DNA of 63,331 bases, filler included, from Folioceros fuciformis (lineage: Eukaryota): NCBI GenBank assembly GCA_049999805.1. It is 9 parts of 9 records of this genome, joined end to end, with 100 filler letters (N's around TTAATTAATTAA, not from the genome) between each part and the next. Parts side by side here need not be neighbours in the genome. Positions count along the whole stretch, not along the records: positions 45,164 to 55,474 come from JBNGIO010005816.1; 8 more parts are not named here. One strand, 5' to 3'. Each line of letters starts with the position of its first letter. The first letter of the stretch is position 1. Made by a program: the position numbers and the translations under genes. Positions 7,083-60,922 of this stretch are shown here, piece by piece. The notes under the pieces were generated by a model. It saw nothing but the letters and a program-made list of their open reading frames with translations, searched no databases and was not told where the DNA came from.

Positions 7083-7182
7083 NNNNNNNNNNNNNNNNNN
7101 NNNNNNNNNNNNNNNNNNNNNNNNNNTTAATTAATTAANNNNNNNNNNNNNNNNNNNNNNNNNNNNNNNNNNNNNNNNNNNN
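7083..7182. other. Artificial scaffold linker N44-TTAATTAATTAA-N44 (also at 15426, 22503, 41513, 45064, 55475, 58139, 60811)
   Basis: Identical 100-bp six-frame-stop spacer occurs eight times. Confidence 0.98.
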
Positions 7183-14950: not shown

Positions 14951-15525
14951 GTATAGAGCAAGCATATACATTGTGCAAACGGTGTGTTGCTTTGAATGAA
15001 ATTCCTTATTCCTTTTTACCAAAGGATGACAAATCTATGTTGCAAATGGGCCCATCATGGATTCTACTCAAGATCTCATTTGTGAGTATATTATCATCTA
15101 CCCGTGGGCTCAGCTATATAGGGATATGGGATAGGCAAGGTCCACATATATATACTCTTCCATGGAAGACCCTTTGCTCTTGAGACCTATGGGGGCATGG
15201 GCAAGGAGCTTTCAAGGCTTTCAAGGCTTATTAAGGTGAGACATGCCTTGCACTTAGCTGTTATACCTTATTAGGCTCTGAGGATCTAGGCCTTCATGGA
15301 GCGACATACAATGAACCTTGTGTACCAGACACACTTCTTGAACAAGGGCTCACAAGTCTACACACAAGTCTTGCTGGTACACACTTCTTGAACAAGGGCT
15401 CACAAGTCTACACACAAGTCTTGGANNNNNNNNNNNNNNNNNNNNNNNNNNNNNNNNNNNNNNNNNNNNTTAATTAATTAANNNNNNNNNNNNNNNNNNN
15501 NNNNNNNNNNNNNNNNNNNNNNNNN

Positions 15526-22502: not shown

Positions 22503-22604
22503 NNNNNNNNNNNNNNNNNNNNNNNNNNNNNNNNNNNNNNNNNNNNTTAATTAATTAANNNNNNNNNNNNNNNNNNNNNNNNNNNNNNNNNNNNNNNNNN
22601 NNAC

Positions 22605-29250: not shown

Positions 29251-30200
29251 GGCCTAACAATGATGGAATTGTTTGGAGGCCTATGCACTAGACTTGAAGC
29301 TATGCTGCAGAATGGGTTGGTTGTGGCCAAGTACATTTATTGTGATAAGTGTCCAATAGCTAGAAGACTAGCTGCCTTTCGAATTCAAGGATTACACTCC
29401 CGGTTTTCGACACATTGCCACCCACTACTACAGCTACCATGTTCACAGCCCTTCCACAAGATGTCTAGTACATCCAAATTGGGCACATTCATCAGTTGTC
29501 ACTTATAGACATTGTGGTGGCTAGCTGGGAATGCCAAGGTTTTTCCTCGGCTGGTGCTAGAATAGGTCTGCAGGATCCATGGTTTGCTCTTTTTTTGGGA
29601 GCTTCGACGCATCTTGGCCTGGGTTCAAACTCACAACCCAAGCTATGCTTACATCTTGGAGAACACACCAGCCCAACTGGATTCTCCAGCACAGGTGTGC
29701 TAGGACATGGTTGTAGTCCAACAACATGTGGGGGTGCCATTGTTGCTTGATGCTACACAAGCAGGAAGTTATGCAGATTGCTTGCGCAATTTTTGGACCA
29801 ACCTCGCACCTTTGCTTGTGCTTGAGTTAGTGTTGACTACTACTATTCGGGACCCATCGCTCAGCTTGCTCACAGTTTTGGACAGCCCCGACTAATACGT
29901 GCAATTGAGAAGAAGCCATGGTATAGCACAAATGTCCCGGGATAGCCACGCCGCACGCTTTCAACTCTTGTGACTTACCCTAGTTCCTATGCATATAGGG
30001 GGAAAGAGGCTGGCATGCTTTTGAACACAAATACACAGCAGTGGGAGGAACCAAGTGTGGAGGAACGTGAGCGCATGATGGGTTTTCAAACCCACTCCAC
30101 AATAGCCCCTCATGTTACAGTTAGCTAGCGTTGCTCAGCCCTGGGGCGTGTCATGGATCTCTCTACTGTCACATGGCTGGTAAGTGTGTGCCTAGCATTT
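29251..30200 (+). pseudogene. Decayed C5-cytosine DNA methyltransferase (DNMT3-like, non-permuted), probably retrotransposon-borne
   Basis: Motif I ELFGGL (29266), IV IVVASWECQGFS (Cys 29532), VI YILENT (29659), VIII RNFWTNL, IX/X EERERMMGF...R..LGRVMD; spread over several frames with stops. Confidence 0.82.
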
Positions 30201-31158
30201 CAACTCATGACTTGTATAGGTCCTCGTCCAACCCCACAATGTTCCAGCACCTACATTGCCGTTGCTATCCATCTACCGTACCCTAGCTACACCACTTGGT
30301 CCACTTGGCTTGATGCCAGGGGGGGGGACATGTGGCATGTGCTAAGCAACTTGTTTTTTTAGCATCAAGTCCTGGAGGAGACTAGAATTCAACATTCAGA
30401 GCTGCAAGGGCACACCCTTTGATTGAGACCTTTCTCTGAACAATGGGACCCAAGCTCATTGTGGAGTGGTTCTTACACCCAATAACCACTAAAAGGGCCA
30501 CACTTCCCCTTATTATCGTTGTAGTCCTATGATTCACTCCCAAGGGAGTGAACTAGTGTCAAGGTTACCTACAATTTTCCCACAATGCCTTAATCTGATC
30601 CTATCTATCAACCGGTTCCTAGCCCTGACCACACTACAACAAAAAAATCAGAATCCTTCACCCTATCTTCAACGCCAACCACAACAACAGCTGAATGAGA
30701 ACTCTAGCATCATCTTCAGCCCCCCCTTCCAGCTCCAAGTATCAGCTGCCTCAGCAGCTGAGAGGAGGCCCCCAGCCCTAGCCTCGGCCTCCACTCTCAG
30801 CCCTAAATGCCAGCCACCTCAAAAGTTGAATGAGCAATTCAGCACCTGAGCTCCTCACCTTAGCACACCAACTCCACACTCTAGCACTTCCACTCTCCAC
30901 TTCAGTTCTTCAGCCCTTCATTCCTTCACTCTCTCTCTTCACTCCTGGATTTTGGAACACAACAGCCCCTCACTTGCAGTCCTTGGGGCAAGGGTGTGTA
31001 GACCCAGGCTGTTAGAAATCAAGCTCTAATTGAATTGTTATTAAGAGCATACAACACTTAGGATAGTGTAGATTATCCCATATTGAACTCGTAGTTATCT
31101 ACCACCTAAGTGTTATCAGGATATACCAAGATATTGCACCCTTGAGACTAAGGCTTAC

Positions 31159-34100
31159 TGTGGAGTGATTTCTTGCACCCAAGAACCACCTAAGGGGCCA
31201 CACATTCCCCTATTGTCGTTGCAGTCCTATGGTTCGCTCCCAAGGGAGTGAACTAGTGCCAAGGAACACTACCTATCACACTTCTACCTATCAGTCGGTC
31301 TATAGGTCTGTCCATACACTCACAACAAAAGGGCTAGAAGCCTAGCCTACCCCCTAAGTCAGCTCACCCAACTCACACTTCTGTTCTTCAGTCCTCCAGC
31401 TCTTCTTGATTCCCACTTCAGCCACTTCCTCCTTACTTCAGTCTTCAAGATTCCCACTTCAGTCCCTTCCTCTTCACTTCAGTCCTCCAAGATTCCTACT
31501 TCAGTCCCTTCCTCTTCATTTCAGTCCTTCACCCCCCACTTCAACACACACTCCTACTCTTCAGGAGCTCACTCTTCACTTCTATGCATTCCACTCCAAC
31601 TCTTCCTCTCTTTTCTTTAGCTCTCCCCCCTGGAAATTAGGGCACAATGGCTTCACTTCTTGCAGCCTTCAAGCATAGTGTGGATCTAGGACTGGATAGC
31701 CCTTCAGCTCACGGTCCTGTTCCTTCACTTCAGCCAACCTGCGAATCATGTAGCCCTTGCGGATTCGGCCACACGAATCTTGATAGCCCCGGGATCCCCA
31801 CGTTCCCCTAGCGGCAAGGGGAATCAGGACTTTGGGTCAACCTCAACCGGCTCAACGCCCTAAGCTAGGAGTTCTACCCACAAAATCCGGGGACCTCACA
31901 CCATAGACCGCCCCCTCTCAATGGCAGGTCTCCCCTCTTATCTGCCTACCCTCTATCTCTGTCTACTAGGGTTAACCTGAATCAATTACCCTACCTCCTC
32001 TCTCTGACCTAACCAAATTCTGACCTAAACCTGACCTAGGTATGACCTAATCTGGATCTGACCTAAACCTAACCCAAATCTAACCTAGACCTAGCCTAAG
32101 TCTAACCCAGACCTAACCTAACCTAGGTCTGACCTAAACCTAACCTATCCTGACCTAGGTCTGACCTAAGCCTAACCTAACCTAACCTAGACCTAACCTA
32201 AACCTAACCTATCCTGACCTAGGTCTGATCTAAGCCTAACCTGACCTAGGTCTGACCTAAACCTAACCTAGACTTAACCTAACCTAGAATCCTAACTCTA
32301 ATCTACACCTGCTTCTAATTGCCCATTGCCCCTTGACACCGTTAGCTGCCCACAATTATCAGCCCGTCACATCTAGCAAAGATCAGGGGTGCCTCTCAAC
32401 ATCCCTCTCCTGTCTCGGGTCAAATCAACTCCCTCTGATTATCCTGCCTTCTTCCCCAAAGTCTCCCATCTTTAGGTCCTTCCCTCCATCCTGCTGGCCA
32501 CGGCCGGCCAAGACTCCTGGCCCTGCAACCTGCCCACCAAGCGCTCCTGAATAAGGAATCCGCCATCCTATCAACATAACCACCGCTGCGCTTCCCACCA
32601 TGAGTAGCACACCTAGGCTAGGCCTTCGGCCTACAAGCAACTAGGGTTGCTACTCATGGATGGAAAGCCAAGTGTCACTTATGTCCTTAGCGGACCACCC
32701 TCCAAGCTGCTTGACTGGTCTGCTGGACTGATGCCCTTGAGCGGATAACCCCAAGGCGTTGCGTCCTAGCATGGCACACACCATCCATCATCGCCCATCG
32801 CCGCAATTAGCATCCGGCCATCCACCTGTTGTAGCGAGTCAGTTCCAACCCACTAACTGCGGATGGCAAGCCGTATGCTAATTACGGTCACTGGCTGCCA
32901 TGGTACAGGGGATGAACTACCCTTGCCTTCGATGCTCGAGTGGGGCAGTCCACGCCCCCCCCAACGCCATCCCCACACCCTAAGATAGCCTGGCAGTACC
33001 TACCACCAGTGTTTTAGTGTCAGGCTGTCATCCTTAGAGTGTCCCTCGGGACACTCCCCTGTCTTCCCCCTGGGCACCCGCCTACTCGGCTGTTACAGGG
33101 GGAAGACGCCTACTCGGCTGTTAGGCCTACTGGCTGCCCAACCAGCCATCTGGCCAGTCTTCGGCTAATAGATCCGGTCGAGACCATTTTGTCCAGCCCA
33201 AAGGAACGACCATACAGGACCACCGATGGGGTCAGTTGATTTGCATTGCACCTGGTTTGACCAGGATTTGGAACAAACCGCTCTCCTTGGTTTGCAGTGC
33301 ACTAAGTGCAAGTCCGTCCGTGCCTGGGTGCTCTCGGATTCAACCGCTTGTCCTCAGCCACTGCTTGGATTCGGCTAGCACGCCGTGAATCTCCTAGCTC
33401 TGCTTCCAGCCAAACTGCGACTATCCCAACTGCTCGGTCTCTGGCTGATCAGGATTAGATCTAGTCAGCTCGCCTGGTTACCGAGTCACCTGCTATTTTC
33501 CTGATTCAGCTAGCTGGCCAGCCGACCAGACTCGACTGGCTAGCCTGCCTTTGCCTGGATCTGGCTAGGCGGCCAGCCCGTAGGCCGCCTACTGCCCGCT
33601 TGCAATTGGAGCGGGCTGGGTTGCTAACCAGACTCCTCACCACCATCTCCAGCCAGCAACCCCCTTGTTCGGCCAGCCATCACGGCTCATCTCGGTTGCT
33701 CGTGGCCGGCCATTCGCCTGGCTAAGACAGCTAGCCATGCCACTAGCCCAACCCCCCTCAGATCCACTTGTCTCGCTTGCCCAACCAGCTGGCCAGAGGC
33801 CCCTAGCTACCAGGTCGCCCCAGCCAGTGGATCCGCACCCCGATCGGCCCCTGACCGCCTAGCTGCTGCTCAGTAGCTGGTCGCTGCTAAGCCGGCCCCC
33901 CTGCTACTCGTCTTGCCAATCCAATTAGGCGCCCACTTGCCATGCTGATGGGCCAGGCTGCCTGCCTGCTTGCTGCCTGGCGGGATCCGCCTGCCAGCCT
34001 TTGCCCTACAGCCAGCCGGCCTGCTAGGCCCAACTAGGACCCAAGCTTGGATCCTACCTTGGCCTGCTACACCTGCGGATCCAACGCCGCTTGCCTGGCC

Positions 34101-36286
34101 TGGATCCAGTGCCACCGCCTGCCTCCAGCCACTGCCAACACGGCTAGCCGACCAGCCAGGCCGCCAGCCTGGCTACCGAATCGGGCAGCCAACTCGCTGC
34201 GTCCCGATCTGCCCCTTTAGGCGACTTCCTGGCTAGCGCTCCACCTGCCAGCCTTACCTACCAGCAGCACGGCGTGTAACAGCCCGAGGCCCGTCTACCC
34301 ATTCTGATTTCCACCCCTACCATGCTACCTATCTGTTGGTGACACCGATCCACCAGCCCCCCCGGCTAGCCCGTCTACCAAACCCGGATCGCCTGCAGCT
34401 TGGCCGCACCCCTTGTAGTGGCCCCAACTAGCCGATCAGCCAGAACGCTGCCTGGCTCCAGCCGTGGCTAGCCGTTTCACCAGCCACCAACTTCCCTGGC
34501 TCGCTCTTGGCTAGATCCGATGCCCACTCGGCCCAGTTCCGACTCCGAGTTGCTACAACCAACCCGACTGATCACTTTGCGAGATCTCGGCTACTTGACT
34601 AGCTTCAGGACCCGACCCTAGCTGCCAATGCCTGCTGCTGCCTGAGAGCTGGCCAAGCCGTTGCCTGGATTCGCCTTAGCCCGTACACCAGTCAGTAGGT
34701 TGCCTCCCCGGATCCACCTAGCGAGTCGGCTTGCTGGATCCGGCCTGTAAGGCCGCATCCAGCCCGCCACCAGCCAACATCTGAGGCCAGCCGCCCCGAT
34801 AGCCAGCTTTCCTGCTAGCTTGCCTCCGGCCTGAGCCTCCCTTGCTGGCCAGCACGGCTTGGATTAGCCCAAGGCTCGTATGGCTTCGTTCCAAAGCTGT
34901 CTCAGGCTGTCTAGCCTTGCCACTCTAGCTGCAGCCAGGCCGGCCCTTGTCTGGCTAAAACCAAACCCACCAGGCTTGCTAAGGCTTGGCTGCCTTCCCC
35001 GGCCAGGCGGCTACCTGGCTGCCCGACTGGATCTGCCTACCAGCCAGGCCACACACCGTCCTCCTGGCCAATTTGCTCAGGCCGCCCACCTGCTCGGCCT
35101 GCCTGTGTTGGGCTGGACCAGCCCCAGCCAGTCCGGCCAGCCTGCCTAGCTTCGGGATCTAGCCCTGTCCGGCCTGCCGGTTCCGTCTATCAGCCTGCAG
35201 ATCCTCCCCGGCCAGGATTCCCCTCAGCCAGCCAACCTGCTCCTGCTGTAGGCCGGGCTAGGCTGTCTGGCGATCCGGCGAGTATCTGCCTGCGTCCGGC
35301 CACGGGCTGTCCGCGCCGCTGGGGCGCCTGCCTGCTCTCTAGATCTGGCCAGGCATCCCACCCACGAGGCCGCTTGCTGTAGCCCCTAGCCAGCCCCCTC
35401 GTGATCCTGGCCAGGCAGCCATGGCCGCCTGGATCCCGACGCCGTGCTTGCTAGGTCACCCACCCGCCTGCTACCGGGTTGCCTGCCTGCAGCCATGCTA
35501 AGCTACCTCCCCGTAGCCGGATGTCCGTGCTGCTGGCCCAGCCCTTGCAAGAGCTCCTCTGCAACCCCTCCTCTCTGTAGCCGGGCCGCTGCTGGCCCGG
35601 TCCTCCTCTAGCTGGTTGGGTTCCAGCAACCCCGCCTAGTTGCCTACCTTGCCTCCTCCAGCGCTCCGGCGGCCTACTTGGCTGATTGCCTCGCAGCTCC
35701 GGCCCGGACCCTGGCCTGGGTCTGGCCATGCGGCCTGCCAGCAGCCAAGTCGCCTACATGGCTGCTGCCTACTCCTCCCTCGGCGAGCCGGCTGCCTGGC
35801 CTTGCCCAGGCCAAGTTAGCCGACTCGTGTGGCTAGCCGAACAGCCGGTCCATTACTTTCCCGGCTACCCTCCAACCTACTGACCCTGAGGCAACACTCC
35901 CCCTACCCGGCCATCTGGCTGGCTAACTTTCCCCAAACCTGATGCTCCCACAACCTTAGGCCCTCCATGCGTGACCGCCTGCTCTCGAGCCCTTGGTCCC
36001 AAGCACCGCTATCCCCGTCTCCCGCTTCCACCAGCATCGACCAAAGAGAGCCCCGCTCGCCTTCCATGACGTCCTAGGGTTTACTATTCCTCCATCACCT
36101 TACCCCAGGAACCAGAGCCCACGTCCTATCCACCACACAACCTACCTACCCTATCGACTCACCATCAATTTAGCTACTATTCTAACCTAATCTCCCCACC
36201 TTTCCTCTACAACACTCCCTCACAAATCCAAAAAAAACAGAAAACCTATCCTTTCCCAGGGGTCTATTCAGCATGTGGAGTCCACA
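31159..36286 (-). mobile_element. 5.1-kb solo LTR of the gypsy family with CTTAC TSD
   Basis: TGTGGA...TCCACA termini; CTTAC at 31154-31158 and 36287-36291, single CTTAC at the empty site in the host 3' LTR; minus-strand start matches the LTR at 5599. Confidence 0.9.
32000..32295. repeat. Degenerate CCTAA/CCTGA/CCTAG pentamer array inside the solo LTR
   Basis: For example CCTAACCTAACCTAACCTAGACCTAACCTAAACCTAACC. Confidence 0.9.
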
Positions 36287-41500: not shown

Positions 41501-41743
41501 ACCTTACCAGACNNNNNNNNNNNNNNNNNNNNNNNNNNNNNNNNNNNNNNNNNNNNTTAATTAATTAANNNNNNNNNNNNNNNNNNNNNNNNNNNNNNNN
41601 NNNNNNNNNNNNTGTGGGCTTGGTGGAATTGGTTGTGAGCGGTTTCTTGGTGGGACGGAATTGGTTCATCCCACCAGCTGTAGGATTGGTTGCGCACACT
41701 ATGGTGCATAGCAAGTGCTCTGATACGGTGGGTGGTTGAAAAG

Positions 41744-43389: not shown

Positions 43390-45231
43390 CCAGGCAAGGC
43401 CCGAGCCCAGCCGAGCTGGAGTTGAAGACCGTTTATCTCATGTCCATGCTCCCTTGCCTTCCCTTGGCTTGGTCTTGCCTTGCCGTAACCCTTCTGCGGG
43501 GTGGCCAGGCACGTGGGACTAAGCCGGAGCACGTGACAGGAATCGTGGGCAATAGGGTTTATTGTAGGTGGTAATGGGTTTCATCAGTCACGCTGATCAT
43601 GAGAGACCATGGCAGAAGGGGCTGCTGTCCGCTGTCCTTCCAGGGAAGGCAAGCTGGCAGGCGTGAGAAGGGGGGGGCAAGCGTGGCGCCAGCTACGTCC
43701 GACGTGGCTGCACTCGATGGCCGCCACTTGATGTCGCGCATGTGGCCCGCGCCGAGGGGGCCAGGCAGAGCAGGGCAGGGCAGGGCAGATAAGGTTATGT
43801 ACGTACCTGGTCTAACCAACGGGCCACACATTAGCCCCCGGATACGTTAACCCCAGTGGAAGCCTGCATTCCAGCCTGGCATGGGTTTTCGTGCACACTC
43901 CACAAGGCCATGTGGCATGTGCCAGCATGCCAACATGCCAGCCTGGTTCAGACAGCATCTCTCGACGCTTCCTCGCTTCCATATTTACATATGTAGACTC
44001 CATGGAGCGAAGACGGTAATTCCTTAGCCGGGCACCGAGTGGATGAATGGATATTCTATTTTCATATTCATATCTAAATCCGGGGGGGAACGCATGACCT
44101 GAAAAGAAAGAGGACAGAGTGGGAGTCTGCGGGAATCGAGCTCCGGTCGCCTCCGCCCTCGACGTTGCTCTTTACCGCTCGACCTACGCACTATGAAATA
44201 TCCAATATGAAATCCGCTTTCCTCCTGTAGAGTAGGGATTCCACTGAAGATATGTTCACGGGAACGTGGAGGAAGATAGCTGTGCCTTGACGGGGTCGTT
44301 GATGAGTATCAAGCAATATAGAAAGGGACTGATTGCTTCCTCCTCCCTCGGCTGAGCGAGCGAGCCAGCCAGCTACAGGAGAAGAATTGGTCACGCTGTT
44401 TTGTGAACGTTGAACGTTGTAGGTGCATGCATACATGTCCCGCGTAGCCGTGTCGCTCGATCGGGGGGTGTTGGCTGGAGAAACTGGCCAGGCTCATTAA
44501 TAATAGTATAATAGCCGTTTCGTCCCGCGAGTGAGGGAGGTGTGTCTCTGCTGTCCTGCCCCCGCTCTGTTCCGTCCTGCGGATCCCTGCCATGTCCAGC
44601 CCAGCATATAGAGAGAGGAGAGAGAGTTTGGAAGCGGGACTGGGACTCTCTGGGAGCCAGACAGCGAGCCAGCCAGCTCGCGGCTGCCTCCTGCCTGTGT
44701 CCCCTGCTTCTTCTGGCCTTGGTGCCTCTCCCACGCCTCGTCCACCGGGCGGCTCCAGGCCCGGACGCCGCCGCCGCATCCGCCAACCCGCTTGCGGCTT
44801 CCTCCGTCTGCCGTCCATCCCACCTTCCCCCTCTCTTCTATGCTCCATTGCTGCTTCGCCACGCGGTGGTGCTTTGTTTGACTGGGCTACGCAGGCAGGA
44901 CAGAATAGAAACACAAGAGAATACATGACAGCGGAACACAACAGGCTGCTTGCATATTTGCTTCGCTTGATTGGAGCAAGACTTTCATCGCAAAACAAGA
45001 GCGAGCAGCGGACTGGACAGGAGTCGCTCCCAGGGGCCTTGTTGTTGCAGCGGCAGATCAATTNNNNNNNNNNNNNNNNNNNNNNNNNNNNNNNNNNNNN
45101 NNNNNNNTTAATTAATTAANNNNNNNNNNNNNNNNNNNNNNNNNNNNNNNNNNNNNNNNNNNNAGGCATAACTGGCCCTGACCACACGCTCCTCACGCTA
45201 GCCAGCCAGGCATGTGCAGAGAATGGAGTGG

Positions 45232-45660
45232 TTAAGACCAGTATAGCTTTCCCGTGAGTGAGCTTTGGTACACAGGACACTGCACTCTCTGCATTTGGGT
45301 GACCTTGCGAATCACTCTTGTTAGAATGCTCGACACATCTTCGGTACGAGAGTGGTCAATGATGGCTTTCATGAAAGCTACGATGAAGTTTGTGCCTTCC
45401 TCCACATCTCTGAAGGATAAATCTCCAGGACTGATAGAGAAGACGATGAGAAAATCTTTCGCCTGATACAAGGGTCGTATTCTCTTGCTGAGACCCTGGC
45501 TTCCCTGAACGTCTGACCCCTCGGCTGTGCTGGTGGTGGCAACGTAGGCGGGGCCCGACCCCTGTGCTTTCATGCTTCTCACCACACTGCCAGTGCCTCG
45601 ACAAGCATTTATGACAACCACCTTAGGCTTGTTTGCCAAATACTGGCATTCAGCGATGGG
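45232..45660 (-). pseudogene. Animal-type caspase (peptidase C14A-like) C-terminal half: catalytic-Cys strand plus p10 region; out of frame with the upstream ROCO ORF
   Basis: CQYLANKPKVVVINACRG (Cys codon 45603-45601) resembles CPSLAGKPKLFFIQACRG; KDFLIVFSISPGDLSFRDVEEGTNFI...ILTRVIRKV...QCPVYQSSLTGKLYW resembles a caspase p10. Confidence 0.82.
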
Positions 45661-48484
45661 CACCACCTTTCCAGTACAACTGTCGTTTCCCTTGAAGAGC
45701 TTTACCTTCGGCGTCATCCAAGGTGAAGGGAACAAAGAATCCAGGCCTTCGATTCGCATCATCTTGATAGCACAAGTATAGTCTCTTCATCAATAACACC
45801 AGATGTTGAATGCGAATCCCGTGCACTTGCGTGTCTTGGAGGATCCGGGCCAAGGTTCCATAGAGCAAAGTTTCAGCAACAAACCTATCATTGAATCTTC
45901 CCAAGGGAGGCGATTCAGTTAGAAGGTGAATGAGGCGGCCCAGGAACGAATGACTGATCCAGTGTGGATTTACCACCACAGCATCTGCATCTTGGAACCA
46001 GATGACCCTGCCTGCATTGTGCAGATAGGCAAGAGTAGCTTGAAGGCGTTGCTCGTCACCTTCATCAACGCTTTGCTCATAATCTTCATCAACCCATTGC
46101 TCATCATCTTCTTCAACGCTTCGCTCATCATCTTCTTCAACGCTTTGCTCATCATCTTCGTCAACACTTTGCTCATCATCTTCTTCAACGCTTTGCTCAT
46201 CTTCTTCTTCAACGCTTTGCTCATCATCATCTTCAACGCTTTCCTCATCATCTACGTTAAACAACTTTTTGCATCGCTCCTTGGTCACGATAGGCTTCGC
46301 TGGATTTCGAGATACCCACTGAGTCAAAACAACATTCAATCGGTTGCATGCCTCGGGGACCCAAAACAGAGGAAGTGCAAAGAGCTGTCGAAACGATTGG
46401 AATAGTTCCTCCAGCAAGGGGTGCACGGTGTGCGTAGATCGAGCATCCATGAAGAGTAGAGGCGTTGCCATGACATGAAGTACCTCCTCGAAAGCCTTGG
46501 CCAACTCGTCCACAACTGGTTGCAACAGATCTACTAGTAGTTTAGCATGCAGACCCTCCATCCGATCCTTATGAGTAACAACCACAAATACTCGAGGCAA
46601 GCAAGCACCCATGTTGCGAGAATTAGAGTGGATGAATCTAAGCCAAAACTTGAAGCTGTTCGTGAACTTGTCCAACAGCATTTCAGTGGACGGGAGGGGT
46701 CCACCAGGCTTGCGGGCATCAAATGGGTTGAACATAAACAAGAAGACACATGTCTGGTTGAAGCTCGGAAACAAGTAGTCTTGCAGAGCTCGGTAGTGAG
46801 CTTGTCCAGCCAGATCCCAAATGGTAACTTTCATCTCGTCGTCGTTGCGCAGCACCTCGATTTCTATGCCTTCCGTTCTGGGGACAGAACCCACCTGGTT
46901 GGATGATGCGGTTCCTGTGAGTGGATGGTTGGATGATGCGGTTCCTGTGAGTGGAACATTACCAAACCAGGAACCATTCCAAGCTAGAGACAGTTGTTCC
47001 CACAATAGGACTCGCTTGGCTGATGCGGCTCCTGCACAATGTGATGCGTGTGGTTGCGATGCGCGCCATGCGGCGATCATGGTGTTTCGGAGAGTGGTCT
47101 TCCCTGCGTAAGGAGCACCGCACAGGAAAAGGCGCCCGACCCTGGGCTTCACAGCCTGTTGCCCCTCCAACAGCAGAGGCCAGTAGGCCCTGTGAGTAAC
47201 ATTGCGTGCCAACGTCGCGTTGATGATGGCCTGCTTTCCCTCGCTCCCCCAGTCTGTGCTCTGGATGTCGATCTTCTGTAAAGTGGTGTTGCCTTGGAGG
47301 GACTGCATCAGCTCTCTGAAGACCTCATCGTTGAGTCCCTCGCAAAACACAAAGCGGAGCTCATTCAAAGATGTATTTTCCTTCAAAGACTGCACCAACG
47401 CTTTCATGAAAGAGGGCCACTTTAACCGTCTCAAAGTCAGGGTACGTAATGCTTTGCATTCCAGAAACGACATCGAAAATTCACTTAACGACTCGTCATC
47501 GTCATATTGGAACAAGTCAAGATTGGAGAGGGTGGAGTTGTGGCGCCAAGCATCCAGGTCGAACTTGACAGCAAAATGGTTGATGATCAGCTCCGTGATA
47601 CAATCGTTGGTGCCCAACATTCCGGCCAGCGCGTCGGCCAGGCCTGGCTCCTCGCTGTTCCCGAAATCCAACCTCCGGCTGGTGACCCCAGATATGGGGG
47701 CATCAGCATCAGCACGGGTGAAAGCAAGTTTGCACACAGTGCTCATGGGCCCCAGGTTGCCCTGTACGGAACCCCTAACTGCATTACGCCCACCCGGATA
47801 TTCATCATCCAACTGAAGCTCCCGGAGCGAGGCACAGAGCGGCAGAGCGTTTGCAATACACTGGGCTCCCTCCTCATCCATGCCGATAGCTCGCAGATGC
47901 AGGGTATGGAGACGGGGAGCGGTGGCCAGCATGCGAGCCAGGTGCTGTGCCCCTTCACCATCTCCCACTCTGTTCCGGACTAGGCTCAAATACTCCAGGA
48001 CGGAATCCTGGTTGAAGCCATCGACCAGGGCACCAAGTCCAGCGGCATCAAGCCCAATCCTCCATGCGTCCAGCTGTCGCAAGCTGCGACTGGAAGCAAT
48101 AATCTGGCCCAGGGCCTTGCAACCCGCCAGCCTTCCAAAACCAGTACACCAATTCAGAACAAGAGATTTCAGGGAAGGGTTGGATGCCAGGGCCCCCAAC
48201 AGAACCCCGCATTCATCCTCCCGAGCGATGCCGATTCCCCACTCTTCATCTATCTCCAGGCGGCAGCGGAGACTGCGGCACTGGCCAATAGCTGTTAATA
48301 CCCGAGTGCGCACTCGCCAGTGCCTGCCATCCGTGCTCGTTGAAACTCCCCGTCTGAAGAAATCGCCGTACTCCCTTCCGTGCAAGTCGGGGAGTTGGGT
48401 CAAGGAGTGCCCTTCCAGATCTTCCAGCAGCTGCTGCAGCTTAGCCGGCAACTCGCGCCAGTCATAGTCCTCTTGCTCCGCCAT
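45650..48484 (-). CDS. Intronless LRR-ROC-COR (ROCO, TORNADO1-like) protein, 944 aa, COR truncated
   Basis: RNI-like LRRs (LEYLSLVRNRVGDGEGAQHLARML); ROC G1 GAPYAGKTT, G2 RTEGIE, G3 WDLAGQ, G4 THKD; COR-like YLHNAGRVIWF...VVNPHW, FFVPFTL. Confidence 0.88.
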   Translation of the reverse strand: MAEQEDYDWRELPAKLQQLLEDLEGHSLTQLPDLHGREYGDFFRRGVSTSTDGRHWRVRTRVLTAIGQCRSLRCRLEIDEEWGIGIAREDECGVLLGALASNPSLKSLVLNWCTGFGRLAGCKALGQIIASSRSLRQLDAWRIGLDAAGLGALVDGFNQDSVLEYLSLVRNRVGDGEGAQHLARMLATAPRLHTLHLRAIGMDEEGAQCIANALPLCASLRELQLDDEYPGGRNAVRGSVQGNLGPMSTVCKLAFTRADADAPISGVTSRRLDFGNSEEPGLADALAGMLGTNDCITELIINHFAVKFDLDAWRHNSTLSNLDLFQYDDDESLSEFSMSFLECKALRTLTLRRLKWPSFMKALVQSLKENTSLNELRFVFCEGLNDEVFRELMQSLQGNTTLQKIDIQSTDWGSEGKQAIINATLARNVTHRAYWPLLLEGQQAVKPRVGRLFLCGAPYAGKTTLRNTMIAAWRASQPHASHCAGAASAKRVLLWEQLSLAWNGSWFGNVPLTGTASSNHPLTGTASSNQVGSVPRTEGIEIEVLRNDDEMKVTIWDLAGQAHYRALQDYLFPSFNQTCVFLFMFNPFDARKPGGPLPSTEMLLDKFTNSFKFWLRFIHSNSRNMGACLPRVFVVVTHKDRMEGLHAKLLVDLLQPVVDELAKAFEEVLHVMATPLLFMDARSTHTVHPLLEELFQSFRQLFALPLFWVPEACNRLNVVLTQWVSRNPAKPIVTKERCKKLFNVDDEESVEDDDEQSVEEEDEQSVEEDDEQSVDEDDEQSVEEDDERSVEEDDEQWVDEDYEQSVDEGDEQRLQATLAYLHNAGRVIWFQDADAVVVNPHWISHSFLGRLIHLLTESPPLGRFNDRFVAETLLYGTLARILQDTQVHGIRIQHLVLLMKRLYLCYQDDANRRPGFFVPFTLDDAEGKALQGKRQLYWKGGAHR
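46050..46255 (-). repeat. In-frame 24-bp repeat encoding (EEDDEQSV)x~8-9 within COR
   Basis: Repeated CAACGCTTTGCTCATCATCTTCTT. Confidence 0.93.
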
Positions 48485-48569
48485 GCTGTGCTAAGCTGCG
48501 CTTCCCGATGCAAGCAAATATGATGAACGGATTGTGTGGATCACCCGTTTCGTAGCAGGGGCAGGAACC

Positions 48570-48870
48570 TCACAGCACACACTCGAGGACTGCGTCACCA
48601 GACAAGGACAGGCTACGGGACAGCCACCTCACGAGCACACACTCGAGGAGGATTGGGAGACCAGACAAGGATAGGCCAGCGGCCAGCAACCTCCCAAGAA
48701 GACACTCGAGGAGGATTGGCACACCACACAAGGATAGGCTAGGGGACGGGGAAATCAAACTCACAGCAAACACACTTGAGGAAGATCCCGATTGGAACAC
48801 CAGACACGGGTAGGCCAGGGGACGACAAACTCACAGCACACACACTGGGTGAGGATTGGGACACCATACA
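48570..48870. repeat. Degenerate ~60-70-bp repeats just upstream of the ROCO start
   Basis: CACACTCGAGGA(GG)ATTGG...CCAGACAAGGA repeated ~5 times. Confidence 0.75.
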
Positions 48871-49685
48871 AGGTCTTTTGAATCTCCGAGGTTGTGTGGT
48901 AGCCGGCACGAGAGCTGACAAGTCTCCCTCACTCTCCCTCCACTCATCACTAGTGGATATTCCTCCTCCATATTTGCGCGCAGTATTTTATCAACCACAC
49001 CTAAGTGTTGTGGACTCATTGGGCCAGCCAGCGTCGTGGACACGAAAGGCTAAACTTTTCTAAAGCTGCGACTTCCAACCCCCTTCGAATTCTCTCCCCC
49101 CTACCCGTACTTGTCACAACACGACATGTCTCTTGCTCCACTGCTGCTTGCACGAAAGATGCCTTCCTTAACATGGAAGGCAGGTACAGCAGGTTTGTGA
49201 GCAGTGGGACCCAGCACCTGAGCTCAGCTCAGCTAGGTTCTAGCCCAGTCATCGTTATCCCTTCCTTTGGACTCATCAGGGGGAAACGCGGTTTGTCCGG
49301 ACCAAGCGCGTTGAATGAGAATGCCCATAAAATGCGGTTTGTCCGGACCAAGCGCGTTGAATGAGAATGCCCTTATGGGTTGGGTTCCTTCAAGTCGGCC
49401 ATTATACTGTCTCTTGAATATACATATCATATCGTATCATATCATGAGTACTTAACACAACTTATACCATAGGGACTTAATACTTAACACAACTTGTACC
49501 ATAGGATACCGATCTACTTGCTGCAAAAGGCATGCTTCATTTCTTGAGTGTAGGATGCTTAATTCCATCTTCCCTTTGTCTAAGAACCCATATTGAGTGC
49601 AAGATTAAGGTTTATGCACTCAAAATTTGTACCTAGATGGGGTGCCTAAGGAAATTCCTGTGCACTAAGCCATTTCAATTTCAAC

Positions 49686-50052
49686 ACACAAGTCATGGTG
49701 CACACTTGTGCAAGCCAATTAAGTCATGGCACACACTTATTCATGCCAACCGAGTCATGGCACACACACTTGTGCATACCAACCAAGTCATGGTACACAC
49801 TCACTTGTGCATACCAACCGAGTCATGGCACACACTTGTGCATGCCAACCGAGTCATGGCACACACTTGTGCATGCCAACCGAGTCATGGCACACACTTG
49901 TGCATGCCAACCGAGTCATGGCACACACTTGTGCATGCCAACCGAGTCATGGCACACACTTGTGCATGCCAACCGAGTCATGGCACACACTCTTGTGCAT
50001 GCCAACCGAGTCATGGCGCACAATTGTGCACGCCATCTGAGTCATGGCATGC
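49686..50052. repeat. 31-bp minisatellite, ~11 units
   Basis: GAGTCATGGCACACACTTGTGCATGCCAACC at 49820, 49851, 49882 and onward. Confidence 0.95.
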
Positions 50053-50068
50053 ACAAATACATAGCTGC

Positions 50069-53000
50069 TGTTGTTTTATAGGATCGAGTAGAGACTAGAC
50101 GCGCACAATAGAGTGCGACAAAGAATAGAATGATGTTATGCGTGTTGTGCGAGGCGACTTGTGTGCCGCGTGAAGTTACAGCAGTTATTAGCCGTTGGTA
50201 ATCGTGTCCCCGTCTATCTAGGGCGCGGTTCAAATCTCGACGTTAACCTAACTATAAAAGGGTTCGGCTATAGGCATGAACCAGATAGAACAAGGTTACA
50301 AGCCTTCTAACACTCCCGCTTAGCCGACACTTTATACTTCTCTTCGTGTTCACGCTCCTTTGGTCTGGTTGATTTTTGTTCCTCCTCCTAGCAGCTGCAA
50401 TTGTTGAGCTCGAGCGATGCCTCCGCTAGTCCTCCCTTCGCCCTCCACCTCGTAATCATGTGCAGGAAGAGCAAGATGTCCTTGATCAGTTGAGAGCTCT
50501 CGACGCCCATGTGCGAGTGATCCGTGGTCTTCCTCCTTCCGGCCGAGATGGCTTGATGTCCCTGTCCAAGAACTCCCACTGCCCCCGGCTGAACATGTTG
50601 GTGGAGAACTATGAATTCGACGTCGGAGTTGGTGGCGGCTAACCTTGCACTATGCTCCATGGTTTGCTGCCAATCCGGAGTATATTTTTCTGCAAAATAG
50701 ATCACGAGTAGGACTACATGTACGACTCCAACCCACAGCAGATAAGTTTTGTCTCTTTGGAGAGTCTGTCATGCCTAGTCCTACATAGTGTTTATCATGC
50801 TTCTCTTTAGGTAGTGGTTTCGTGAAAATGTTTGCAGTGTTTTCTTCTGTTGGGACATACTCTAGCCTAACATGTCTGTCCTCAATAGCTTGTCTGATGA
50901 AGTGGTACTTCACTCCAATATGCCTTGTCCTAGAATGCATGACCGGGTTGTTGGAGATTGCGATTGTTGATTGGTTGTCGCACCTAACCCTTGTTGGTCC
51001 TTCCTGCTTGCAGCCAATTGATTGTAGCAGGGCTTGGAGGTGGAGCACTTCTTGTGTTGCAGCAAAGACAACCACGTACTCCGCCTCAGTTGAGGAGAGT
51101 GCAATAATAGGTTGTCTCTTGCACCTCCATGCTACGACGCTACCGCTGATCTTCACACATTACGCCGTAATGGACTTCCTTGTATCCTTGTCAGCAGCCC
51201 AGTCTGCATCAGTGTAACAAGTGAGTGCTGCATGGATCTTGCCTGTTTGGTGTTTATACAGAAGTTCGAGGCCTGGCTTGAGCTACAAGTAACGCAGAAC
51301 CCGCTTTGCTGCAATCCAATTTTGTTGGCCGGGATTAGCCAAGAACCTGGACACATAGTGTGATGCCAAGGAAATCTCAGGCCGCGTCCACCCTGCTAGC
51401 CAGACGAGGCATCCGGCCAGTACTCCGAAAGGTTCCCCTTCCATCTCAGCTCGTTCTTCTTTTGTTGAAGGTGATTGTTCAGTTGACATGATCGCTCCTA
51501 CAGGTACTGGTGTCGCCATAGTCTTGCACTCCGTCATATTGAACTTGTCCAGCAATCTTTTGACATAGTGCTCTTGATGAATAAAGATGCTGTGGTCGAC
51601 AGGATTGACCTTGGCTTGTACCCCTAGGAAAAAATTGATGCTCCCATGATCTGTCATCTTAAATTCAGAGGATAGTATGTCTTTCACCTTTTGCATGATT
51701 CTTGGAGAAGTCGCAAAGATGAGAGTGTCATCAACGTACAGCGCAAGGTAAGCTGTGTCCTTCCCTTCTCTCAGCAGATAGAAATTACCATGAGATGGAG
51801 ATTGTACGAATCCTGACTTCATTAGGTACGCGTGTATACGCTTGTACCATGCTCGAGGTGATTGTTTCAACCCATACAGGGTTTTCTTCAGCCTACACAC
51901 ATGCGTTGGATGCTCCTTGCTAACATACCCTTCTGGTTGTTGCATGTACACTTTTTCATCAAGTACGCCATTCAGAAAGGTTGTTTCAACATTCATTTGA
52001 TGGACTTCCATGTTCATTTCTGCAGCCATAGCTAGGAGAGTGCGGACCGAGGCAGCACAAACTACACGTGAAAATGTTTCTTTGTAGTCCAACCCTTCCT
52101 TTTGGGAAAAACCGCGCACAACTAACCTCGCCTTATACCTTCCGATGCTCCAATCCAGTTTTAGCTTGTACTTGAAAACCCACTTGCAGGTGATGGGTTT
52201 ACGGTTGGTTGGCAAGGGTTCTAGTACCCATGTGGAGTTGTCCATCAGCGACTTGTATTCTTGATCAATGCCGATTCTCCAATGAGCCTTATCAGGTCCA
52301 GTCAATGCTTCCTGGTATGTCCTTGGCTCCCCCAAGTCTTGTGCTGACACTAGAGCCTGGGCTAGCAGGGCCTTCCGCATGTGCGTCTTAGCTCCCGCTC
52401 CCATTTGATAACCTACATACTTGGCTTGTGTAGGTTGTTGATCAGCAGGTGGTACATTGATAGGTAGCCCAGGTGTGGTTTCTGCTGCCTTAGTTTCTGC
52501 TGCCTTACTCCCCCCTCGAGGTGCCACCAATTGATCTTGTACGGTATACTGCATTAGATGGGGGGGGGGGACAGTGGAGGCACTTGCCACTCCTCTCGAG
52601 ATGCAGTATGATGACGAAGAGACCGCCGCAGGGTTGGTACCGGTGCCTCTTCCACAGGCACGGCTGCGGGCTCCTCCTCTCCATCACTAGGAATGTCGAG
52701 CTCAGCTTCGCCACCATTGTCATCAGGAAACACACTATGAAGGGGGTAAGAGTCCACGGGTGTAGTGGGTGCAACAGAAGCATCAGGTGCCATCAAAGAG
52801 TCAAGGTCAGATGCATTTTGTGCAGTAGTGTCATTGTCACTATCACTGTCATTGTCACTAGAACTATTACTACTGCCGGGTGGAGCTGGCACAAATGTTT
52901 GCAGGCTAGACGATGCGTTTCCTGAGTGACTTTGAGCTTCGGAAGGGTCTCTGACTTCGCCTTGTGGCTTTGAGCTGTCCAGGACGTGGAGCTCGTCAAA

Positions 53001-55474
53001 GATGACGTTGCGAGAGTGGCTGATCTTCCTTGTAGTCGGGTTGAAGAGTTTGTAGCCCTTCACCCCCTCAGTGTACCCGATGAAGATTAATTTCTCAGCT
53101 TTGAAGTCCAACTTCTTCCTAGTCTGGGCAGGTACATGAATATATGCTGGTGAGCCAAATACTCTTAAATGGCTTATTCTAGGCTTCATACCTGTCCACC
53201 TTTCATAAGGAGTAGCTCCTTCAAAAGCTCTGGTAGGAAGTCGGTCAGCATGCTTTTGGCCCCCTCTTGAACGTAGTGCTTCTTCCTCTCTGCTAGAGGA
53301 TTCTGATCGGAGGAGTGGGCCACAATCAATTGCCTGAAGATGCCTTCTTTTTCACAATAAGCTCTAAACTCGCCCATGGCAAGTTCTCCTGCATTGTCAC
53401 TCCTCAGGGTCTTCAACTTATGCCCTGTAAATCTCTGTGCATATTGCAGGTACTGGATAAACCTGTCAAGTGCTTGACTCTTATGGGCAAGGAAATAAGT
53501 TAGTGTAAACCTACTCCAATCATCTACTATGACCATAAAGTACTTAGCACCGCCGAAAGAAGTGGTGGACATAGGACCACACAAGTCTGTGTGCACTACC
53601 TTAAGAAGGTGAGTGGCCCGGGTTGCATCAGTGTTTTTGTGAGGCAACTTGTGATGTTTGCCAAAAGTACATGATTCACAAAACACATTGTCAGGAACTG
53701 TAAGATTTATCTTATCTCTATACATGTCAGAGTTGACTACTTGCTTGAGCCTAGGAAAGTTGGTGTGGCCTAGGCGACAGTGCCACAGGAAGGATTCTTC
53801 ACTTGAGGTGATTCTTTTTGCAACTGCGACGATTTCTGTGTGAACTTCTTCAGGGCTGCACCTTGTTGATGGAGAAGTCGAGCTTGTACAAGTCATGTAC
53901 TGGTACTCCTCTGGCTATCTCAGACTTGATGTTGCCGGTTGAGGTGACCACACACTCTTCACCTTTGAAGTTGACTTGAACTCTATGTTGCTTGCATAGG
54001 TGCCGCACCGACACCAAGTTCTTCGCCATCTGCGGCACAAGTAAGACTTCTTCGAGTAGCAACTCTGCTCCATTGGCCAGCTTAACACTCACAGTACCTG
54101 TACCTTCAATGAGCAGGCCACTATCGTCTCCTAATAGCACGTATTGTTTTGGTGGTCCCTGGCTGAACTCACTAAATAGTGATCTGGTGTTGCGAATGTG
54201 GGCCGAAGCCCCAGAGTCAAGAAACCAAGAGTGCCTATCTATGGCCGAGTGTACCATGTAGACTGCCAATATGACATTGGATCCTCTCAGCTTTGTGGCA
54301 GTGTTTGCTTCTGGTGGTGCCAGTCGACGTGGCTTGCTTGCCTTCTTCTTCCGGCATTCATGCTCGTGATGGCCGGGGAACCTACACCAGTTGCAATTGC
54401 CCTTCTTGCATGGAGAAGTTGAGGGTGCACTCGACCAGTCTTTGCTTGGAGCTTGCTTCCTTGGGGGCCATGAAGGGCGGCCAGCTTGAGGTCGTCCTCT
54501 TCCCCTCCCCCTTGATGTGTACAGTACTCTATTGCTTGAATTCGAGGACGCTCCTTTGTTTGAGCGATGTGAGGATTCCTCTTCAAGCAAGGCTCCTATG
54601 ATCTCTGACAAAGTGATTGTCACCGTACCTGCAAGCGCTGCTGCTGCGGCTCGCAAGGTTGCATTCTATGTACTCACGAAAGTCTTGAAGTGTTCTGGCA
54701 GGGACATTAGGAGTGCGACTGCCACTTGGAGCTCGGAAACCTTCGTGCCGGCTGACACCAAACGCTGTCTCAGGTGGCGGAACTTCATTATGTGCTCCTC
54801 TACATTCTCTGAATCCTTCCTGCGCAGATTCCAAAAATGACGAGTAGCTGCAATAATTGATGTTGAGCTCGTTGTTGCAAAGACCTGGTGGAGGGACGTC
54901 CAAGCTTCAGCTGTGGTCTCCGCGTCGTCGACGTGGTGCATCATTGAGTTGTCCAGCGCTGACTAAAGCAGGGCTCGTGCACGCAGGTCGGTCTTCTTCC
55001 AATTCGAGATGACGTCCGCGGCTGTCATTGCGGCAGGCTTGGCAGTTGCGCTGGAGGCCACATCCCACAGGTCCTCAAGCTGGAGAAGTATCTTCACCCT
55101 CTGCATCCAGACATCGTAGCCGGTACCATCGAACCGGTCTCTGTCCTTGAAGTCTAACCTGATGCTGGTCACTGTTGTTGGCGCCGGATTTGCCATGACT
55201 GTGAATGGAAATGGCTCCCTCTTCGGCGATCCCGATCGGACCCTCCTCTTTGCACAGGTGTCCTTTAAAGGTTCACTCCCTGTTGGTTCTTGAGACTTCC
55301 CTCGATGCCCTCTACGAAGCATTCGCCGGTTGCCTCCACATAATGCTCCAGCAAGATCTCTTTGGTTGCATCAACTGCCTTCGTCTCCACTGTTGTATTG
55401 ACTACTTTGCTTTCTACAGGTTTTGACAGAAGGAGTTTGATGGACTTCTGATCTTTGTGTAGGTTGGAGACTTG
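50069..55474 (-). mobile_element. Ty1/copia element, near complete (gag from ~55196, pol to ~50700, PPT ~50313-50322, 3' LTR ~50312-50069), degenerate
   Basis: DRFDGTGYDVW, CNWCRFPGHHEHEC, WFLDSGAS, HTDLCGP, LYVDD, SSTEAEY, RTRHIGVKYHFIR; TGTTAG LTR start after AAGCGGGAG. Confidence 0.93.
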
Positions 55475-55574
55475 NNNNNNNNNNNNNNNNNNNNNNNNNN
55501 NNNNNNNNNNNNNNNNNNTTAATTAATTAANNNNNNNNNNNNNNNNNNNNNNNNNNNNNNNNNNNNNNNNNNNN

Positions 55575-58138: not shown

Positions 58139-58459
58139 NNNNNNNNNNNNNNNNNNNNNNNNNNNNNNNNNNNNNNNNNNNNTTAATTAATTAANNNNNN
58201 NNNNNNNNNNNNNNNNNNNNNNNNNNNNNNNNNNNNNNGGGCTCACAGCACGGATGCGTTCTGGTCTGCAAAGGGTTCAACTGGGCTCCTCCCTCTTACA
58301 TCTGCACGCGTACAGGTTTCTTTATGCTGCAGGTTGGGGTTAACACCGAGTCCACTCCTGGATCTTCAAGATACGTCTACACTGCTGAGATTTGATCCAC
58401 GATGGCGCCAAGAAATCTGCATTCAGTGGTTACTTGTAGCAGGCTGCTATACCCAGTCT

Positions 58460-60810: not shown

Positions 60811-60922
60811 NNNNNNNNNNNNNNNNNNNNNNNNNNNNNNNNNNNNNNNNNNNNTTAATTAATTAANNNNNNNNNNNNNNNNNNNNNNNNNNNNNNNNNN
60901 NNNNNNNNNNATCATCTCGGAG

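Follow-up and report, generated by a model that had tools for sequence, protein, structure and literature searches.

A plant-type ROCO reading frame abutting part of a caspase-type domain in the Folioceros fuciformis assembly points to a candidate family of plant caspase-type proteases

In a 63,331-nucleotide stretch of DNA from the Folioceros fuciformis assembly GCA_049999805.1 (hereafter, the window), one 10,311-base contig (JBNGIO010005816.1, window positions 45164 to 55474) carries a plant-type ROCO reading frame with leucine-rich repeats (LRRs), a Roc GTPase domain, and COR-A, directly followed by the C-terminal part of a caspase-type domain of the Peptidase_C14 (C14) family. The locus is probably a rearranged, nonfunctional copy from a multicopy family of a seed-free-plant-type genome. 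The clade behind the locus is more interesting than the locus itself, which is of a known kind, a receptor nucleoside triphosphatase (NTPase) combined with an effector of the caspase superfamily.

The 944-amino-acid open reading frame (ORF) that an earlier note on this DNA had described, ending QLYWKGGAHR*, was found on the minus strand at positions 45650 to 48484, with its stop codon at 45650 to 45652. Its leucine-rich repeats, of the ribonuclease inhibitor type, occupy residues ~70 to 430 (47195 to 48277, minus strand), and residues ~70 to 250 matched ribonuclease inhibitor-like proteins in the PDB with E values of 2.7e-7 to 1e-3. The Roc domain (46505 to 47119, minus strand) contains the P-loop GAPYAGKT (residues 456 to 463; 47096 to 47119), DLAGQ (residues 557 to 561; 46802 to 46816), and THKD (residues 637 to 640; 46565 to 46576), and a Pfam match to COR-A covers residues 810 to 919 (45728 to 46057, minus strand). 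The Pfam scores of both domains lie under the cut-offs, at 23.2 bits for Roc (cut-off, 27) and 29.6 bits for COR-A (cut-off, 35.3). All six database matches of the frame are ROCO-like, and the four with names come from land plants (Marchantia, Sphagnum, Adiantum, and Calypogeia). The best homologue is Marchantia polymorpha MPTK1_4g13206 (P0001; 32% identity; E = 6.6e-62), with a Roc score of 32.9 bits; Roc exceeds the Pfam cut-off in four of the five homologues scanned, and another homologue, P0002, carries LRR_6. A C14 domain was seen in none of these five plant-type homologues, three of which are named. We take the plant homologues to be of the TORNADO1 type. The Marchantia protein and the frame are both uninterrupted and share an N-terminal motif, ribonuclease inhibitor-type LRRs, Roc, and COR-A in the same order, whereas the frame stops at the COR-A/COR-B border, adds acidic and 30-nucleotide repeats, and has caspase sequence next to it. 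Homology ends at about residue 940 of the 1170 in the Marchantia protein, just before the F/Y-x-G-R(R) motif that opens COR-B, a part of the COR dimerization region. The LRR-ROC-COR reading proposed earlier thus holds for the LRRs, the Roc motifs, COR-A, and the plant-type ROCO homologues, but not for COR-B, which is absent. On sequence homology, the 944-residue frame is a plant-type ROCO. An acidic tandem repeat (46049 to 46253; 24 nucleotides × 8.5) encodes DDEQSVEE-type units just before COR-A, and a perfect 30-nucleotide duplication (46896 to 46955; PLTGTASSN twice) lies in a long Roc insert between the P-loop and the switch region.

The caspase-type piece (45232 to 45660, minus strand) comprises NACRG at 45595 to 45609, a linker, a p10 part with SFR at 45409 to 45417, and a terminal KLYWS. 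It lies in a 176-amino-acid ORF (45232 to 45762, minus strand) that overlaps the ROCO ORF in another frame, reads ...GKVVPIAECQYLANKPKVVVINACRG...SFR...KLYWS*, and stops at 45232 to 45234. A caspase-type peptide in a shifted frame from ~45660 had been claimed, and a Pfam profile search bore this out, with Peptidase_C14 matching the ORF at an E value of 1.6e-19 (71 bits; cut-off, 21.4). The match is limited to profile positions 106 to 233 of 233, the C-terminal ~55% of the domain; the Cys motif, linker, and p10 part claimed for the domain are present, but the half containing the catalytic His is missing. The catalytic Cys, in INACRG, is kept in 74 of 74 rows of an alignment of relatives (A4). 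The catalytic His (S/A-H-G), present in all 74 rows including the relatives from the same clade, is absent from the piece, and the first Arg of the S1 pocket falls in the missing half, while the second is present as SFR. Where the earlier note gave QACRG and SWR, the contig reads NACRG and SFR; N in place of Q in QACRG also occurs in 17 of the 74 aligned sequences.

In the PDB, the caspase-frame ORF matched 133 sequences at E ≤ 0.01, the best 60 of which are all caspases, with Dronc residues 300 to 417 at the top (E = 2.3e-10). The animal caspases compared here (Dronc and caspase-3/-7), which we take to belong to MEROPS C14A, share KPK..NACRG, S-x-R, and the p10 part with the piece, whereas the piece stands in a separate, long-stemmed clade, has N for Q in QACRG, and represents the second half of the domain only. 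A metacaspase identity was considered and rejected: among the 150 listed of 186 relatives, none has only the C[HN]SG motif and 123 have [QN]AC[RQKG]G. By its motifs and matches, the piece belongs to the caspase-type and not the metacaspase-type C14, as had been claimed. A tblastn search of the window revealed no further C14 or ROCO piece.

The two homologies meet at a breakpoint at 45659 to 45661 (minus strand), where that to ROCO ends and that to caspases begins, one base apart in frame. A ROCO codon starts at 45661 and a caspase codon at 45660; the caspase homology opens at the Pro codon 45660 to 45658, a position at which Pro is invariant in the clade. Given this offset and the ROCO stop codon, which follows three codons past the joint, the ROCO gene and the caspase domain are not joined in frame. 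No combination of the GT/AG sites between 45640 and 45710, read by eye, puts the ROCO and caspase parts in one frame, and no repeat common to both sides of the joint was seen by eye. Since the ROCO and caspase homologies are both cut at one point, the joint points to a deletion or a nonhomologous join and not to a designed fusion. Sensor, oligomerizer, and protease are therefore not in a single ORF at this locus, given the frame offset and the early stop, and the one-chain sensor-dimerizer-protease that the earlier note had envisaged cannot be upheld here, with no common frame, no His half, and no COR-B. By analogy, a receptor-protease model would be reasonable for intact members of the family.

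Contigs from three public sequencing runs (X1, X2, and X3; one species label, two studies) were placed on positions 45164 to 49200. They reported no indel between 45650 and 45790, which argues against a functional gene in which the offset reflects a sequencing error and the LRR-Roc-COR-A part is fused to a pseudo-caspase that lacks the His and would pair with other caspase chains. A truncated ROCO acting as a decoy or regulator would be another form of a functional gene. The 944-residue ORF is intact from the homologous N terminus with all of its G motifs, and the 176-residue caspase frame is open, as either form would predict; however, the offset coincides exactly with the homology breakpoint, unlike a simple base-calling error, and the caspase piece is without the catalytic His and the first S1 Arg. 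We regard a functional gene as very improbable.

A scan of 1.84 billion representative sequences with the caspase piece gave 186 matches at E ≤ 1e-3, of which 150 were listed, and the closest is at most 48% identical. The named matches are mostly animal caspases (snail, mussel, insects, and mite). P0013, a transcript of the hornwort Nothoceros aenigmaticus, is 41% identical to the piece and has CFVNAHG and INACRG, and a subgroup shares the motif string CFV[SN]AHG..KPKVxxINACRG..VVFST..S.R..GTYFVQAL..KLYW. A search for longer proteins with the subgroup alignment found one, Ceratodon purpureus KC19_5G008800 (P0165; 1147 amino acids), annotated on a 20-Mb contig, in which Peptidase_C14 (30 to 241) and NB-ARC (308 to 549) are followed by LRRs and an Arm repeat; with the fragment from the window alone, none of 433 candidates scored. 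A metagenome scan yielded 30 loci (L001 to L030), all on short contigs and none containing P0074 or P0094; the 10 best matches are 26 to 33% identical to the piece, with identities as high as 52% confined to short segments.

For the phylogenetic analysis, 150 of 151 candidates matched a hidden Markov model of the clade, and 117, each matching more than 150 positions of the profile, were retained, 33 partial sequences being dropped; with the piece, the alignment had 118 rows (quick IQ-TREE run, LG+G4, midpoint root for drawing only). The tree places the piece in a clade of 10 rows that has a support of 99 in the Shimodaira-Hasegawa-like approximate likelihood ratio test (SH-aLRT) and a stem length of 0.54. 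This clade contains hornwort and moss sequences, six without a species name (two without a group label), and none of the 13 named animal rows. The sister of the piece is P0028 (support, 82). P0074, P0023, and P0138 are close relatives of the moss protein P0165. In alignment A4, the string R-H-G-N-A-C-R-G-S-R is present in seven of the nine listed clade rows; in P0092, a further clade row, the two Arg, the His, and the Cys are all conserved, but the motif is ICCRG, and P0013 and P0099 are without the part of the domain that holds the first Arg. The tree accordingly gives the caspase piece a clade apart from the named animal caspases, together with hornwort and moss sequences. These relationships suggest that mosses and hornworts have a caspase family, so far little known, whose domains are carried on proteins resembling immune receptors, with the Folioceros locus as a pointer to it.

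P0028 is a 450-amino-acid protein from a public assembly with a complete C14 domain at residues 187 to 425 (Pfam E = 8.3e-34) and, in frame with it, an N-terminal extension of 186 residues that is COR-B-like. In hhalign, residues 2 to 97 aligned with residues 971 to 1064 of the Marchantia protein, the COR-B of the plant ROCO, at an E value of 0.006; against a COR-B-only profile the score was 26.6, compared with a mean of 14.3 (standard deviation, 2.5; maximum, 21.8) for 100 shuffles and 12.7 for the reversed sequence. The likeness of the extension to COR-B is suggestive, not proven. An AlphaFold2 (AF2) model based on 74 aligned sequences is mostly confident over residues 170 to 430, with a predicted local distance difference test score (pLDDT) that exceeds 90 in most of the domain and drops in the linker, and it resembles caspase-3, -6, -7, and -9 with TM scores of 0.80 to 0.87, normalized by target length. 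R203, H260, C306, and R360 of P0028 stand in columns that are invariant or nearly so across A4, and we take them to correspond to caspase R179, H237, C285, and R341, that is, to the Asp pocket and the catalytic dyad. In the Protein Atlas, nothing usable was found for the N-terminal extension, and the caspase part led to chordate caspase clusters only.

The three runs contain 289 (X1), 518 (X2), and 410 (X3) short contigs that match positions 45164 to 49200 at 90 to 100% identity, and these hundreds of contigs indicate that the gene family is multicopy. In some contigs (at least five in X2 and at least two in X3), the match to the ROCO side extends to 45660, beyond which the sequences diverge, and in at least one from X1 the divergence starts at 45671. 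The divergent continuations, translated by hand, read ..GGAASKYNYVGR and ..WDGVTAGQYNY, which fits the start of COR-B, so paralogues whose ROCO is undisturbed exist. Over the acidic repeat, run contigs show a 173-base skip (46034 to 46208) and, at 45980, a 6-base insertion, so the number of repeat units differs among copies.

The likeliest history, which we hold at even chances, is that an internal deletion broke the frame of an LRR-Roc-COR-A-COR-B-caspase gene and so gave rise to this copy, now a pseudogene or a truncated ROCO. The ancestral gene would have lost ~1 kb, beginning where COR-B starts and reaching halfway into the caspase domain. What remains would be an intact ORF for LRR-Roc-COR-A, ending three codons past the joint, and, out of frame, the C-terminal half of the caspase domain without its catalytic His. 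We infer a ROCO-caspase fusion as the parent gene. Such a family is plausible because the sister of the fragment in the tree, P0028, is a complete caspase behind a COR-B-like extension, and a deletion is favored because the order and orientation of the parts (ROCO 5', caspase 3', stop right after KLYW) match those of P0028. The layout of P0028, COR-B-like sequence and then a complete caspase with the end right after KLYW, is that expected of the undeleted parent; unlike the locus, P0028 has the complete caspase, while the part of its gene upstream of the extension is not on record. In intact members, the LRRs might sense a signal and GTP-dependent dimerization through Roc-COR might pair two caspase domains, by analogy with the induced proximity of initiator caspases, and the paired domains would then cleave after acidic residues.

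Several observations weigh against this history and against the exactness of the assembled copy. The hhalign probability of the COR-B likeness of P0028 is 6%, a BLASTP comparison of P0028 with the Marchantia ROCO was not significant, and the AF2 model of the extension has a pLDDT below 50 and is unreliable; in addition, P0028 is only 32% identical to the caspase piece. The runs contain about half of the sequence words of the window. At position 45585, every placed contig in all three runs has another base, so the exact copy and the joint lack confirmation from the runs. No contig bridging 45660 was found among the 29 pieces listed (1224 more exist). The summed depth in X1 is 1090 to 1950 over the caspase part against 18 to 910 over the ROCO part (2 to 5 times), and the excess implies many copies of the caspase part in other contexts.

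The excess depth would fit a different origin, in which unrelated ROCO 5' and caspase 3' fragments, the latter stand-alone or of the nucleotide-binding LRR (NLR) type, were juxtaposed by transposon capture or nonhomologous repair, with no ROCO-caspase parent. A decayed copia element (50650 to 55370) on the same contig, the retrotransposon fragments that, judged by eye, make up nearly all the rest of the window, the truncation of both parts out of frame with each other, and the moss P0165, whose caspase is N-terminal to NB-ARC and not behind a ROCO, all agree with such an origin. However, the tree sister of the piece is the COR-B-like and caspase protein P0028 and not the NLR-type moss group, and a simple internal deletion would account for the order and orientation of the parts. 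We consider juxtaposition unlikely, though of appreciable weight.

The joint could also be an artefact of a fragmented assembly, if a short-read assembler had joined a ROCO paralogue to a contig of the caspase family near the end of the 10-kb contig. The joint lies ~500 bases from the contig end, the highly multicopy family is broken into contigs of 100 to 200 nucleotides in the runs, and, besides the missing bridge, several bases of the caspase part find no support in any of the three runs. Nevertheless, no misleading common repeat was seen by eye at the joint, and the partner is exactly the domain that stands behind COR-B in P0028, which a random misjoin would not favor. The bridge, moreover, is missing only among the contigs listed and is not shown to be absent. 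An assembly artefact is, in our judgment, unlikely, and slightly more so than juxtaposition.

The combination of a receptor-type NTPase with a caspase also occurs in proteins outside this locus. In C. purpureus P0165, a caspase of the same clade is fused, in a plant protein, to a receptor-type NTPase with LRRs; it is N-terminal to a STAND NB-ARC ATPase, whereas the Folioceros caspase piece is C-terminal to a Roc-COR GTPase. That some genome has Roc-COR and a caspase in one predicted protein, as the earlier note had anticipated, is the case in Branchiostoma floridae, where XP_035660786.1 (P0102) combines Roc, COR-A, and a caspase and C3YZ38 (P0083) combines Roc and a caspase. The architecture is therefore not unique to the lineage of the Folioceros locus. 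The domain order of P0102 is the same as that at the locus, all in one predicted protein; however, its Roc shows only weak similarity to that of the Folioceros locus (24% identity; E = 6e-4), and its caspase falls among animal caspases, far from the clade of the piece. The amphioxus Roc-COR-caspase thus looks like an independent fusion. No description of it was found in the literature searched.

The window consists of nine contigs placed end to end and separated by eight artificial spacers, N44-TTAATTAATTAA-N44, at 7083 to 7182, 15426 to 15525, 22503 to 22602, 41513 to 41612, 45064 to 45163 (at the end of the contig described here), 55475 to 55574, 58139 to 58238, and 60811 to 60910; neighborhood across a spacer is meaningless. 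The caspase-frame stop lies 68 bases from the contig end. The copia-type long terminal repeat (LTR) retrotransposon on this contig, on the minus strand, has pieces of gag, Pol_BBD, integrase, SH3-like, and RVT_2 in separate frames. The contig, copia element included, gave no blastn match with the other eight contigs at E ≤ 1e-10, which speaks neither for nor against a common origin. Upstream of the ROCO start are two minisatellites, at 48557 to 48873 (63 nucleotides × 4.9) and 49691 to 50049 (31 nucleotides × 11.3), over which run contigs show several skips and back-joins. Elsewhere in the window, the region 30001 to 36000 is G+C rich (up to 0.65) with a strongly negative GC skew, and a degenerate array of CCTAA/CCTAAA-like units with 67 to 76% matches lies at 32019 to 32301.

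Two papers describe caspases as occurring only in animals, with plants having metacaspases (PMC5756287; PMC10896300). No caspase-domain NLR appears in the passages searched of Chia et al. 2024 (PMC11218826), although the supplementary NLR tables may list one. That the earlier note did not recognize such proteins as described in plants agrees with the parts of the literature searched, where no account was found of plant NLR or ROCO proteins with a caspase-type domain. The clade unites, with conserved Arg, His, Cys, and Arg, a genome-annotated moss NB-ARC-LRR fusion, a hornwort transcript, and the fragment beside a plant-type ROCO. We tentatively propose, at somewhat less than even confidence, that seed-free land plants may possess true caspase-type proteases (C14A-like, with an Asp pocket) that form a clade of their own and act as effectors of NB-ARC-LRR receptors in mosses and of LRR-Roc-COR receptors in the lineage of the Folioceros locus, that these may be single-chain, inflammasome-like death or immune receptors of plants, and that the locus is a decayed member. 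As a probable pseudogene, the locus itself has low functional value, and what makes it valuable is the family to which it points. If true, caspase receptors of seed-free plants would run counter to the view that only animals have caspases. Should intact members be active, fusions of a receptor with a caspase would also have been built by plants, which would link plant NLR and ROCO biology with the logic of the apoptosome and the inflammasome, and the origin of caspases would become testable outside animals.

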